Made by a program: the position numbers. This document shows positions 18,001 to 24,000 of a DNA stretch of 32,000 nucleotides, piece after piece; position 1 is the stretch's first letter; every line of letters starts with the position of its first letter. Origin of the DNA: Gammaproteobacteria bacterium (GTDB taxonomy: Bacteria > Pseudomonadota > Gammaproteobacteria > JBIOEC01); assembly GCA_965279305.1 (NCBI GenBank), contig OZ257143.1, positions 540,001 through 572,000 of the forward strand, written 5' to 3'.

Positions 18001-21000
18001 CGGTGTCACCTTTTTTCTTATATTTTTCGGCTATTGCATGTCCGATATCGCCAGTAGCACCGGTTAATAATATCGTTCTCATTATTCCTCCAGCACCTTA
18101 ATAATCATATTACTGGCAAACTCTTCACGTGACAAAAAAGGAGCCAAATCTTCTAATGGTTTGGAAACCATACGTCCATCAGACAAACGCATAGAAGACG
18201 CTTTAGGTGAAAACTGCTGATCTAATGTCAGCATCACTTCACAAATAACAGGGCGATTTCCTTCTAATGTTTTTTCAATAATACTTTTCATATGCCCATG
18301 ATTATCACAGCGATAATAACCAAGCCCATAAACAGCCGCCAATTTTTCAAAACAGGGAAAGCCCAATCCACTATCAGGCCCCACACCCACCAATTTGCTT
18401 CCAAAAAAGTTTTGCTGTGTTTGGCGAATAGAATGATAACCATTGTTATTTAATACAAATATTTTAATAGGATATTCGTTAAAAGAAATAGTCGCTAATT
18501 CTTGTATGTTTTGCTGAATACTTCCATCCCCTGCTATACAAATCACTTTCTCTTTATTTGAAGCAACACAAGCACCAATTGCTCCAGGCAAATCATATCC
18601 CATAGAAGCGGATCCTGAATTGGTAAATAAGCGCTGGCCTTTTTTAATCTTCATAGCCTGAAACGAAGTCACGCAGGCCGTTCCATCACCGGTTACTGTA
18701 ATTTGATTTTCAGGCAAACACTCACTCAATGTTTGCATAAAACAATAAGGATTAACTTTCTCTTGTAATTCCCAATACTCTTTTAACACCACAGGATATT
18801 TATTTTTTCTATGCGTACACCACTCTAACCACTCTGTTTTAGAGCCTATCGATTCTGTTTTTAACTTATTAGATAATTGTTTTGCAAACACTTTTGCATG
18901 AGCACAGATGGGTAAATCGATAGATAATGTAGGTTTGATCATTTCAGTAGGATCTATATCCACCATAATTTTAAATGCTTCACGCGCAAAAGTTTTGTAA
19001 TTGTATCCAATTTGACGAATGTTTAGGCGGCTTCCTATGACCATCAATAAATCTGAATTTTGCACAATAAAATTACCGGCACGATTACCAATAGTGCCAG
19101 GGCGCCCCATATAATAAGGATTTTCATCGTCTATTAAATCATGTGCATTCCATGCTGTTACTACAGGAATTTTCAAAGCATCTACTAAGGCTAAAAAATC
19201 TTGATGTGCACCACCTGCGCGCACCCCACCACCGACTAATAGCACGGGACGTTCGGCTTTCTTCAAAGCCAGTATTACTTTTTCTATCACAGCCTCATCA
19301 ATGGAGGCCTCTTTATTTTGTTCCAAACTATCAGATTCATCTAATAGCGTGGTTTCATCAATAAATGTGCCTTGAATATTCATGGGTATATCAACCCAAA
19401 CAGGCCCTGGTCTACCCGAGGTCGCTAAATGAACAGCTTTTTTCAAATGAGTTAGAATGGTTTGGGGGTCGGTAATCATCACCGCATATTTGGTAATAGG
19501 CGTTACCATTTTTATAATTTCACACTCTTGATCGCCTAATTGTCGCAACGGTAAGCCAGAGCTTTCTACTGTGGTGTCATATCTCACCTGCCCCGAAATA
19601 ACGATCATAGGCACAGAATCTGTCCATGCGCCAAACACACCATTCATAGCATTAATTCCACCAGGACCGGTTGTCACATTAACAACCGCAGGCTTTCCTA
19701 ATAAACGAGCATAACTTTCCGCGCCCATAGCACTGGCTTGTTCATGATGATTAAATATCACTTCTAATTCGGGATGCTTGCCAAAGGATTCATTCAAATG
19801 CATAGCACCACCACCGGTTAGCATAAACACATGTTTAATGCCCTGCTGTGCTATAAAATTCGCTACATAATCACTGACTTTAATCACGATAATTTCTCCC
19901 AATACCACTCTTTCGTTTTTTTAATAGCTTCAATTAATGAATATTTATTTTCTAATTGTAAATCTGAAAGTGCTCTCTGCACTGAAGGGATATAACGCTC
20001 TGGTTTTTTATTAGGATCTATTTTTTTTGCTATGGTCACTTCAACTGCAGGTGTAAATGTTTGAGCAACGATATTAGCAATATCAGCAATAGAAAATGCT
20101 TCATCCGATCCGACGTTATACGGATAACACGACTTTCCTTTACTCAAAATAGTCCATAACCAAATCATTAAATCGGCCGCATATTGATAAGAGCGATATG
20201 GTGAGCCATCACCCATAATATTAATCGGCCCGCCTTTCAGGCTATCTCTAATAAAATTTCCAATCGCGTAATGAATATCTAATGGCAAATAAGGTCCTAC
20301 AAATGCAAAACATCTGGCCATTTTAATATCCAATCCATATTGTTCGTGATATAAATAACACATATGCTCAGCGGTTCGTTTACCTACGGCATACGCATTG
20401 TTTTTATTAAAAATGTCAGGATTACCTTCATAGTCTTCTGAAACATGCGTGATATTTTCAGGTTGTTTTCCGTAAACAGCACCAGAGCTGATAAATAGAA
20501 ACTGTGGCTTTTTAGTTGAATGAAGCGCAAATTCGAGCATTCTTTTGGTGCCGGTTAAAATCACATCTAACATCAAGGTAGGATTATTAATGTTGAGATC
20601 AGCACTGGCATCGGTAGCGGCATGAATAATATGAGTCCATTCACCTTCAGGAAAAACAAAATCACGCACATCTCCTGAAACAAACTGAATAGATGAACAA
20701 TCAGCTAAATGCGGACATTTTTGTTTAAATGCCTCGGGGTTTCGGGTTAAAACAACAATACTAGCGCCTAATGAACATTTTTCATTAGCCCACTTAAAAC
20801 TTTCTAATAACCAACTGCCAATAAAACCTGTGCCTCCGCTTAAAAAAATGCGGGCATTTTTAAATTCAGACCAAATCGGTATAGTAGCCGATAAGATAAT
20901 ATCCAAATCGGCTTCTAATAAACTGCTTCGCATTTTAGGCTGTTGCATAGCTATACTGTTTTGCAAATTCATGAAACACCTGATGAATATACTGTAATAA

Positions 21001-24000
21001 ATCGGGAGTTAAACCATGATGGCAGGCCATCAATATTCCTCCGCGCATCACTTGATCAGCACATGGATAACCATTTGGATCTTGCTTGCACTCAATATCT
21101 TTAAATCCTGGCTGTCTTAATATATTCCCGGTAAAAACGGTACGCGTTTGAATATTACGTTTTTCTAAAAATATTTGCATTTCGGTTCGCGTAAATGGAG
21201 CGCTGTCTTTTACAATCAGAGGGAATGCTAACCAGCCAGTTCTGGAATTAGCCAACTGTTTAGGTAACATAAACCATTCTTTAAAATCAGAGAAAAATTC
21301 ATAATGTTGTTTAAAAAAGTTTTCTCTTAATGAAATATTTTGATCCAGCTTATTCAATTGAACTAAACCAAATGCAGCTCCCATTTCGGAAGGTTCTAAA
21401 TTATAACCCAAAGCTTCAAATATAAATTTAGCATCGTATTTAATGCCATCCACATCTACATTAAATCGGTTTTCAATACGTTCAGATTCTACGAATAATG
21501 AAGAGCTTCGACCCCAACTTCTCAACAATTTAGCTCTGCTTTCTAAGCGTTCTTCGTTAACACACAGCATTCCGCCATTACCCGCGCAATTAATCACATG
21601 AGAGCCATAAAAGCTGGTGGTACTAATATCGGTAAATCTTCCAGAAGAAGTGCCATCAATCGTAGCACCTAAGGTATCAGCTGAATCTTCTATTACTAAC
21701 AACTGATATTTATCGGCAATTTCTCGGAGTTTTTTCCAATTAGGCAAGTTTCCTAATAAATTAGGGATCATTAATGCTTTTGTTTTAGGGGTTATTGCTG
21801 CTTCTACTTTTTCAGCATCAATATTAAAAGTGGCTGGTTCAACATCCACAAATACCGGAATTAATTTACTTTTGACCAAAGGCGCAACAGTAGTAGAAAA
21901 GGTTAATGCAGGTGTGATCACTTCACTGCCTTCAGGTAAATCGGCAATTTCTATAGCAAGATAATTGGCTGATGATCCAGAATTCACCATAATACCAAAT
22001 TGCTTGTTATATTTATCTGCAATTTTTCTTTCCATTTCACGCACATTTTTGCCCATTTGAGTAGAAGTTCTTAACACTTCCACTACAGCAGCAATTTCTT
22101 CTTCTCCATGAACGGTTTTTCCATAAGGAACATAAATATTAGTCATTAGTCACCTTCTTGTTAGGGTTAATAAAATATTGAATTTGCTCTAATGTAAATG
22201 ATCTCATATCCATTTTTTTATTTAAAAAGGCTTTGTACCATTTAACTGTTTCACTTAATGTTTGATCGATATTCCATACTGGCTTCCAACCTAAAAGCAT
22301 TCTCGCTTTAGTAGAATCTAGCATTAAATAATGCGCTTCATGTAATGCACTTTCTGTTATTTCTAATGGAGTTTTTTCGCGGCCCTGTTCAACCCAAAGC
22401 GATATTGTTTTATCAACCAAAGTACCAACACTAGTGATATCTTCAGGATTAGGACCAAAATTCCATGCTTCGTTATATTTTTCAGGATGATGGTATAATT
22501 TTTCTGCCAACACTAAATATCCATTTAAACAATCTAATACATGTTGCCAAGGACGTAATGCTTTTGGAAAGCGTAAAGAAATCGTGCTTTGGTTTTCAAA
22601 TGCTCGGATCACATCAGGAATTAAACGATCTTTAGACCAATCACCACCACCAATAACATTGCCCGCACGTACTGAAGCAACACCTGTTTTAGTGTTTTTA
22701 AAAAAAGAATTTCTATAAGCGGAAACCACTAATTCAGCGCACCCTTTGCTATTACTGTAAGGATCGTGTCCACCCATGGGATCATTTTCACGATAAGGCC
22801 ATACCCATTCGCGATTTTCATAGCATTTATCACTGGTGACTACCACAATTGCTTTTACGCTTGCACATGCTCTGGCCGCTTCTAGCATATGCACAGTGCC
22901 CATTACGTTGGTTGCATATGTATCCACTGGAAATTCATATGACGGACGAACCAATGATTGTGCTGCCAAATGAATAATAATTTCAGGTTCAAATTCACGA
23001 ATAGTTTTAGAAAAAAGAGGATAATCTCGTATATCTCCCACTACACTTTTCATATGTTTTTCAGCATGAGAAAGTGTAAATAAATTTGGCTCTGTTTCTG
23101 GTGCCAACGAATAACCTAATACATCCGCTTCTAAATATTGTAAAACTAATGAAAGCCAGCTTCCCTTAAAACCAGTGTGTCCTGTTAGCAGTACTTTTTT
23201 ACCTTTCCAAAATGAAGCTGACATTACCACTTTTTCCACGGTGCTTCCCCTGAATCCCAAAGCTCTTCTAAATAAGTTTTATCTCGTATGGTATCCATGG
23301 GATGCCAAAAACCAGAATGAAAATAGGCAGCCATTTGATTTTCTCTTGCTAATTTCTCAACAGGCTCTCTTTCCCAAATAGTATCGTCGCCATCAATATA
23401 ATCTAACACTTTGGGCGACAACACAAAAAAACCACCGTTAATCCAGGAGCCGTCTCCATGGGGTTTTTCTTGAAAACTTTCTACTTTGTCACCTTCAATT
23501 TTTAAAGCACCGAAACGGCCAGGTAATTGTGTAGCGGTTAATGTAGCCAATACATCTTGAGACTTATGAAACTCAATCAATTTTTTTATATCAACATTCG
23601 CAACACCGTCACCATACGTAAAACAAAATGCTTCTTCATTTTCTATATAAGGGCGAATACGCTTTAAACGGCCACCTGTCAGAGTTTGCTCGCCTGTATC
23701 AACGAGTGTCACTTTCCAAGATTCCGCGTTGCTTTGATGCACATGCATTTTATTATCAGCCATCTCAAAAGTGACGTCTGACATATGCAGGAAGTAATTG
23801 GCAAAGTATTCTTTAATAAAATAGCCTTTGTAACCAAGGCAGATGATAAATTCATTAATTCCATGAGCAGAATATATTTTCATGATATGCCATAAAATCG
23901 GCTTACCACCAATTTCAATCATAGGCTTTGGGCGAAGCAATGTTTCTTCACTCAAACGAGTACCCATTCCACCTGCTAAAATAACCGCTTTCATATTTAA

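Follow-up and report, generated by a model that had tools for sequence, protein, structure and literature searches.

Three characterised types of sugar 3-dehydrase provide the points of comparison for the enzyme described here: E1 (also AscC, DdhC or RfbH) of Yersinia and Salmonella, ColD (also WbdK), the guanosine diphosphate (GDP)-4-keto-6-deoxy-D-mannose 3-dehydratase, and SpnQ, the thymidine diphosphate (dTDP)-4-keto-2,6-dideoxyglucose 3-dehydrase. A 2022 review that covers these three types reports an iron-sulfur (Fe-S) cluster in both the cytidine diphosphate (CDP)- and the dTDP-acting enzymes and, as textbooks do, describes the synthesis of CDP-3,6-dideoxyhexoses as requiring the Fe-S enzyme E1 together with the reductase E3, with the GDP-sugar enzyme ColD as the only cluster-free type (PMC8987622). 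ColD has the same fold without a cluster, and its reaction is finished by hydrolysis and by glutamate-driven regeneration of pyridoxamine 5'-phosphate (PMP) (PMC8987622). In vitro reconstitution of E1/E3 did not succeed in the hands of one group, which attributed the failure to a dysfunctional cluster (PMC7851689). Here we analyse a gene in a 32,000-nucleotide stretch of a Gammaproteobacteria bacterium genome (contig OZ257143.1, positions 540,001 to 572,000; hereafter the window), which lies at positions 20935-22146 on the minus strand and encodes a protein of 403 amino acids, hereafter the dehydratase. We put at about 0.6 the probability that this protein is a PMP-dependent, cluster-free CDP-4-keto-6-deoxyglucose 3-dehydratase with a ColD-type cycle. 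A full-text literature search, with many subscription papers outside its coverage, turned up no CDP-sugar 3-dehydratase described as cluster-free.

The dehydratase belongs to the Pfam family DegT_DnrJ_EryC1 (268 bits), and its best curated family is RfbH (NCBIfam NF011936, which covers RfbH/E1/DdhC), where it scores 317.4 bits, below the curated cut-off of 423. Across 400 sampled Gammaproteobacteria genomes, true RfbH genes scored 442-754 bits versus approximately 270-333 bits for genes of the window's type. The closest sequence in the Protein Data Bank (PDB) found with phmmer was E1 of Yersinia pseudotuberculosis (3bcx, E 1.6e-67), followed by ColD (E ~3e-44), while the recent entry 9wvy stood far below E1 (124 vs 231 bits). 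An AlphaFold2 model built on a 64-row alignment was predicted with high confidence (pLDDT 96.2, pTM 0.93), and Foldseek searches with this model ranked E1 first (TM-score 0.89, 35% identity) and ColD second (TM-score 0.84, 28% identity); neither phmmer nor Foldseek returned a solved structure closer than E1 among the PDB matches. Together, the Pfam, NCBIfam, PDB and structural comparisons point to a predicted E1/ColD-like PMP-dependent sugar 3-dehydratase, of a type that we name T3 below. Database names for proteins of this type range from RfbH-like to aminotransferase and even "NarL family transcriptional regulator", the last being the NCBI name of some Legionella members (P0004, P0054) and an evident annotation error.

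In the phmmer alignment to 3bcx, the His of the SFYGSH motif, residue 183, pairs with E1 H220 at the position of the pyridoxal 5'-phosphate (PLP) lysine, and the E1 H220K mutant entry 3bb8 carries its Lys in exactly this column. The Schiff-base Lys of the SxHxxK motif of the DegT/DnrJ/EryC1 sugar aminotransferases is therefore replaced by His183 in the dehydratase. No exception to this His was seen among 120 close homologues or across the 64 rows of a second alignment, A1, where the cofactor residues S56, G57, D154, S178, N249 and R335 are equally invariant. The dehydratase also shares with E1 the WGR and IED..D motifs. The 120 homologues are 74-79% identical to the window protein, with Legionella and Tatlockia proteins at 75-79%, and because they retain the His and the cofactor residues we ruled out gene decay.

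All four cluster ligands of E1 are lost in this protein: C193, C251, C253 and C261 align with A156, S215, L217 and I224, so that the [2Fe-2S] motif C193-x57-C251-x-C253-x7-C261 is absent from the dehydratase. A ligand spacing of C-x57-C-x-C-x7-C in E1, consistent with the numbering used here, was reportedly described by Agnihotri and co-workers in 2004. The first site is S155-A156 (positions 21679..21684, minus strand), where E1 IEDCCDALG, with C192 and C193, aligns with IEDSADTLG. The second is the loop S214-I224 (positions 21475..21507, minus strand), which takes the place of the cluster-binding loop C251-x-C253-x7-C261 and contains no Cys; here E1 DCYCAPGCDNTC (C251, C253, C257, C261) aligns with SSSLFVESE-RI, leaving S215, L217, S221 and I224 at the four Cys positions. 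Re-translation of nucleotides 21475-21684 returned the same residues at these positions. An earlier sequence-only reading of the window had placed His183 at the lysine position of the DegT family, and had seen no Cys either in the IEDSADTLG segment or between WGR and GYN (nucleotides 21400-21516, W211-N249); the alignments to E1 bear out all three observations.

To place the protein among its relatives, we searched 1.8 billion cluster representatives and obtained 970 proteins at an E value of 1e-30 or better. We then aligned 123 near-full-length rows: besides the window protein itself, these are genes from the sampled genomes and relatives drawn from the 150 best representatives. Every row has His in the Lys column, and the rows fall into three sequence types. 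The Fe-S type is marked by IEDCCDALG, AHH, GEGG and WGR-C-x-C...C, and the ColD-like type by SHH, xEGG and HGW with the Cys loop absent. T3, the window's type, has S-H followed by I or V and one additional residue; its GxGG has lost the Glu, its WGR loop mostly carries SE, and the Cys motif occurs in 0 of its 50 rows. In a FastTree phylogeny from which the trait columns had been removed, a branch with support 97 sets these 50 rows apart, the ColD-like rows falling on the opposite side together with the E1 types. The same split appeared in a quick IQ-TREE run of 64 rows with a modest SH-aLRT of 76; both trees are unrooted, and gain and loss of the cluster read alike in them. Beyond its missing ligands and low RfbH score, the dehydratase is thus separated from E1 by a supported branch, by the extra residue, by the absent Glu of GEGG and by a Ser instead of an Ala before the His. 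By these comparisons the window gene belongs to a large, widespread and distinct family branch, and is no degenerate one-off. A Cys equivalent to E1 C193 (query position 156) was found in 71 of the 73 non-T3 rows, the cluster-free ColD-like rows included; on this alignment that Cys is no marker of an Fe-S site, and only the three loop Cys appear specific to the Fe-S type.

A different cluster site would have to draw on the five Cys that the dehydratase does contain (187, 195, 353, 362 and 375). Such an enzyme would transfer electrons as E1 and SpnQ do, from a cluster with non-canonical ligands (C187, C195 and C375 plus His or Asp) that receives its electrons from general cellular reductases. 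In its favour, these three Cys are conserved among the 120 homologues (at least 74% identity), the genome encodes two flavin reductases and SpnQ itself uses general reductases. Positions 353 and 362 vary freely even among those homologues. Across the wider clade, however, position 187 is A, G or C, position 195 is M, C or A and position 375 is C, A, I or L, the share of Cys in a column never exceeds 72%, so that no substitute conserved Cys set was found there, and some members have just two or three Cys in the whole protein. Since these Cys vary in this way, an alternative conserved cluster site is unlikely on the alignments, and with the entire cluster-binding loop replaced we regard electron transfer through non-canonical ligands as very improbable.

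The second component of the E1 system was searched for in the complete genome, which consists of one contig of 1.87 Mb and is rated 100% complete. Using Pfam Fer2, Pfam FAD_binding_6 and a genuine E3 as query, no E3/DdhD-type ferredoxin-flavin reductase was found in the window or in the complete genome. FAD_binding_6 matched a single flavin reductase of 255 amino acids in which the ferredoxin domain is absent, and the sole Fer2 match lay within a frame of 803 amino acids. The query was the E3 encoded beside ddhA-ddhB-ddhC in genome G316, identified by a Pfam scan of five genomes; a candidate E3 next to a true RfbH at locus L040 turned out to be a glycosyltransferase and was discarded. With this query only two proteins of the window's genome were recovered, each matching just the half that resembles ferredoxin-NADP+ reductase (residues ~123-353), and no protein of that genome matched its ferredoxin part. 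Among other genomes, a full-length E3 homologue was present in 8 of 8 carrying an Fe-S-type RfbH, and no match covering the ferredoxin part was found in 9 of 12 carrying the T3 type. Like SpnQ, the dehydratase has no dedicated E3 gene; SpnQ, however, has retained the Fe-S motif and depends on ferredoxin or flavodoxin systems, whereas the dehydratase lacks the motif as well. The sequence-only reading had noted no ddhD-like gene in the window and had proposed a cluster-less, E3-independent enzyme. The first point now extends to the whole genome, and the second agrees with the missing ligands, the lack of a conserved replacement Cys set and the absence of E3.

The substrate can be approached through the genes directly upstream, which are translationally coupled to the dehydratase and encode glucose-1-phosphate cytidylyltransferase (RfbF; positions 23224..23994, minus strand; TIGR02623, 468.7 bits, cut-off 300) and CDP-glucose 4,6-dehydratase (RfbG; positions 22139..23260, minus strand; TIGR02622, 504.1 bits, cut-off 278), the end of the latter overlapping the dehydratase start by 8 nt. 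These scores corroborate the CDP-sugar context that had been proposed from the sequence. Because E1 has the same gene position after rfbF-rfbG, the dehydratase would act on the same presumed CDP substrate, in contrast to the GDP-mannose context of ColD.

This arrangement recurs. We examined 79 loci encoding a sister protein, together with flanks of at most 10 kb, and found rfbF-rfbG-dehydratase in the same order and on the same strand in 12 of them and rfbG-dehydratase in 4 more, the hosts being Gemmatimonadota, Sphingomonas and other Alphaproteobacteria, a metagenome-assembled genome (MAG) of Coxiellaceae and other Gammaproteobacteria. Nearly all the loci whose proteins are 65-79% identical to the window protein have the cassette. 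The genes that follow it differ by set: a GT4 glycosyltransferase, a sugar C-methyltransferase and a short-chain dehydrogenase/reductase (SDR) in one; a GNAT-DegT fusion, a GT2 glycosyltransferase and a thiamine diphosphate (ThDP)-dependent enzyme in another; and the ThDP/SDR/AroB-like/HpcH-like operon of the window in a third. Given that the tailoring genes vary, that no conserved fourth partner gene adjoins the cassette and that none of the 79 loci has an E3 match within the flanks, the cassette seems to furnish a 4-keto-3,6-dideoxy sugar by itself, for use by tailoring enzymes of different kinds.

In five of these loci, from Sphingomonas and Gemmatimonadota (L106, L113, L115, L118 and L122), the cassette is followed by a conserved gene of ~375 amino acids that clusters with the GT4 of L106 and by a gene of ~410 amino acids that clusters with its TylCIII-type sugar C-methyltransferase, an extended SDR coming next in two; this gene content predicts a C-methylated 3,6-dideoxy CDP-sugar. 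In the Coxiellaceae MAG and another gammaproteobacterial MAG (L112 and L125), the cassette precedes the GNAT-DegT fusion, the GT2 and a distant ThDP enzyme, which suggests a 4-amino or branched N-acylated trideoxy sugar.

Downstream of the dehydratase in the window lies a gene for a ThDP-dependent, acetolactate-synthase-like enzyme resembling YerE and ErwE (positions 18082..19908, minus strand; three TPP_enzyme domains). In a published scheme, YerE-type ThDP enzymes require a 4-keto-3,6-dideoxy sugar as acceptor, which matches the predicted product of the cassette (PMC9306805). These genes bear on whether the dehydratase is a 3-dehydratase in vivo at all, or instead a PMP/PLP enzyme of the same fold that carries out, for example, slow 4-transamination (as SpnQ does without reductase) or epimerisation on the CDP-4-keto sugar. 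The sub-threshold RfbH score would fit such a role. It is countered by the His that stands in for the Schiff-base Lys throughout the trees and alignment A1, by a separate DegT-family gene directly after the dehydratase in two sister loci, and by the known acceptor of the downstream ThDP enzyme family, and we consider a role other than 3-dehydration improbable.

With a 3-dehydratase preferred, what has to be explained is how the cycle is completed, because without a cluster (and without E3) the one-electron, E1-type reduction of the PMP-glucoseen adduct has no conduit. ColD, with no cluster, no reductase and the same catalytic His, is the likely mechanistic model. The two proteins also share the residue before the His, which in the dehydratase forms the pair Ser182-His183 (positions 21598..21603, minus strand). 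T3 and ColD-like rows have Ser here at the same frequency, 86%, whereas 32 of 37 Fe-S rows have Ala. ColD Ser187 was judged an active-site residue from the title of the S187N/H188K entry 3gr9, the roles of ColD residues being drawn here from PDB titles and the review only. Because the ColD entry 3b8x is the H188N mutant, its phmmer pairing is off by one residue, and the Ser-His register was taken from a MAFFT alignment with wild-type ColD-like rows. The common Ser-His pair may be read as a positive hint for a ColD-type cycle.

In such a cycle, CDP-4-keto-6-deoxy-D-glucose made by RfbF and RfbG would be the substrate; His183 would take the C4' proton of the PMP-sugar ketimine with expulsion of the 3-OH, and the resulting delta-3,4-aminoglucoseen adduct would be hydrolysed as in ColD, with no one-electron reduction. 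The released enamine would tautomerise and lose ammonia to give CDP-4-keto-3,6-dideoxy-D-glucose, an amino donor, most likely L-glutamate, would return PLP to PMP, and the 4-keto product would pass to the downstream ThDP enzyme for addition of a carbon branch at C4.

Several observations weigh against this reading. The ColD-type cycle is assigned by exclusion, plus the one shared active-site residue, and both trees place T3 outside the ColD group as a separate branch. Identity to ColD is ~28%, and the HGW, xEGG and E157 motifs of the ColD-like rows are not found in the dehydratase. Residues common to E1 and ColD are absent from the T3 protein, namely H184, E190 of GEGG, H129, G172 and F306, replaced by V, N, N, T and L, respectively; since these are lost, the T3 active site may work differently from both. 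The genomic evidence has its own limits: the T3 genomes are mostly small, so that genome size is a confounder in the E3 comparison, and in seven of the eight Fe-S-type genomes (G001, G088, G090, G188, G204, G339 and G377) the best E3 homologue lies away from rfbH, either about 250 kb or more distant or on a different contig. With E3 adjacent in only one of eight, its absence from the operon alone says little; the informative result is its absence from the whole genome.

The same residue losses and the clade's own signature would fit a third mechanism, in which T3 would dehydrate as E1 and ColD do and resolve the adduct with neither an Fe-S/E3 chain nor glutamate-driven turnover, possibly through hydride supplied by an NAD(P)H-using pathway enzyme or with another amino donor or acceptor. 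T3 genes are often adjacent or fused to extended SDRs, which could serve such a route. Yet it would be without precedent, the SDRs that accompany the dehydratase at different loci are not orthologues of one another, and no fourth gene is conserved beside the cassette; we hold it to be unlikely, and prefer the ColD-type cycle.

Fusions of clade members to pathway enzymes include extended SDR, RmlC-like and RmlD-like domains, and none of the eight cluster-free fusions scanned contains a reductase domain. The SDR fused to P0121 and P0122 was tested as an orthologue of the SDR downstream in the window, and it is not one. Nor is the clade tied to CDP, because a 45%-identical member in genome G250 adjoins RmlA-, RmlB- and RmlC-like genes, together with a short SDR. 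A sister subclade whose members share 42-55% identity with the window protein occurs in Frankiaceae, Acidimicrobiia, Rhodococcus, Streptomycetaceae and a Mycobacterium MAG (L046, L047, L048-L094); searches of these Actinomycetota loci with nucleotide-sugar reference genes gave no matches, and in two contigs with gene calls the neighbours were methylmalonyl-CoA mutase or MeaB, plus a histidine kinase.

The window's extended SDR, of the epimerase/dehydratase family (positions 19884..20972, minus strand; Pfam Epimerase, 124.9 bits), is likely a reductase of a branched-sugar route and is also found downstream of the dehydratase in locus L038. As listed, its reading frame starts 38 nt inside the 3' end of the dehydratase gene, and the true start may lie further in. 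Domain searches showed that the rest of the operon (positions 14364..18082, minus strand) encodes a classical SDR, an AroB-related cyclase-like enzyme, an HpcH/HpaI-like aldolase and a 375-amino-acid protein with no family match. The whole operon recurs in L038 with its gene order kept. In combining a predicted CDP-4-keto-3,6-dideoxyglucose supply with reductases, an aldolase-family gene and a ThDP carboligase, the operon resembles the yersiniose, erwiniose and caryophyllose pathways (YerE, ErwE and MMAR_2332). In the yersiniose cluster, the acceptor sugar is supplied by DdhC/E1 and DdhD/E3; the supply module of the window, in contrast, is cluster-free and has no E3. A link to the caryophyllose of Mycobacterium marinum was considered and dropped, as the loci of the P0128 sister subclade, which includes a Mycobacterium MAG protein, carry no sugar-nucleotide genes and the contig scan gave no M. 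marinum locus.

The nine-gene sugar operon (14364-23994) is flanked by damX and rsmD, and its G+C content is 35-37% versus ~38-43% in most of the flanking DNA. The taxonomic order of the source genome is represented by only two genomes in the collection. The low G+C content and the 75-79% identity to Legionella/Tatlockia proteins, set against an own order of two genomes, suggest horizontal acquisition of the operon.

If T3 enzymes do carry out ColD-type chemistry on sugars derived from CDP- and dTDP-glucose, the rule that pairs substrate with cluster would be wrong for a large share of bacteria, including Legionella-like organisms, Sphingomonas, Gemmatimonadota and many Actinomycetota, and many genes automatically named "RfbH" or "aminotransferase" would require re-annotation. 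In that case, a single oxygen-insensitive enzyme would also open CDP-3,6-dideoxy sugars, and the branched sugars derived from them, to biocatalysis.

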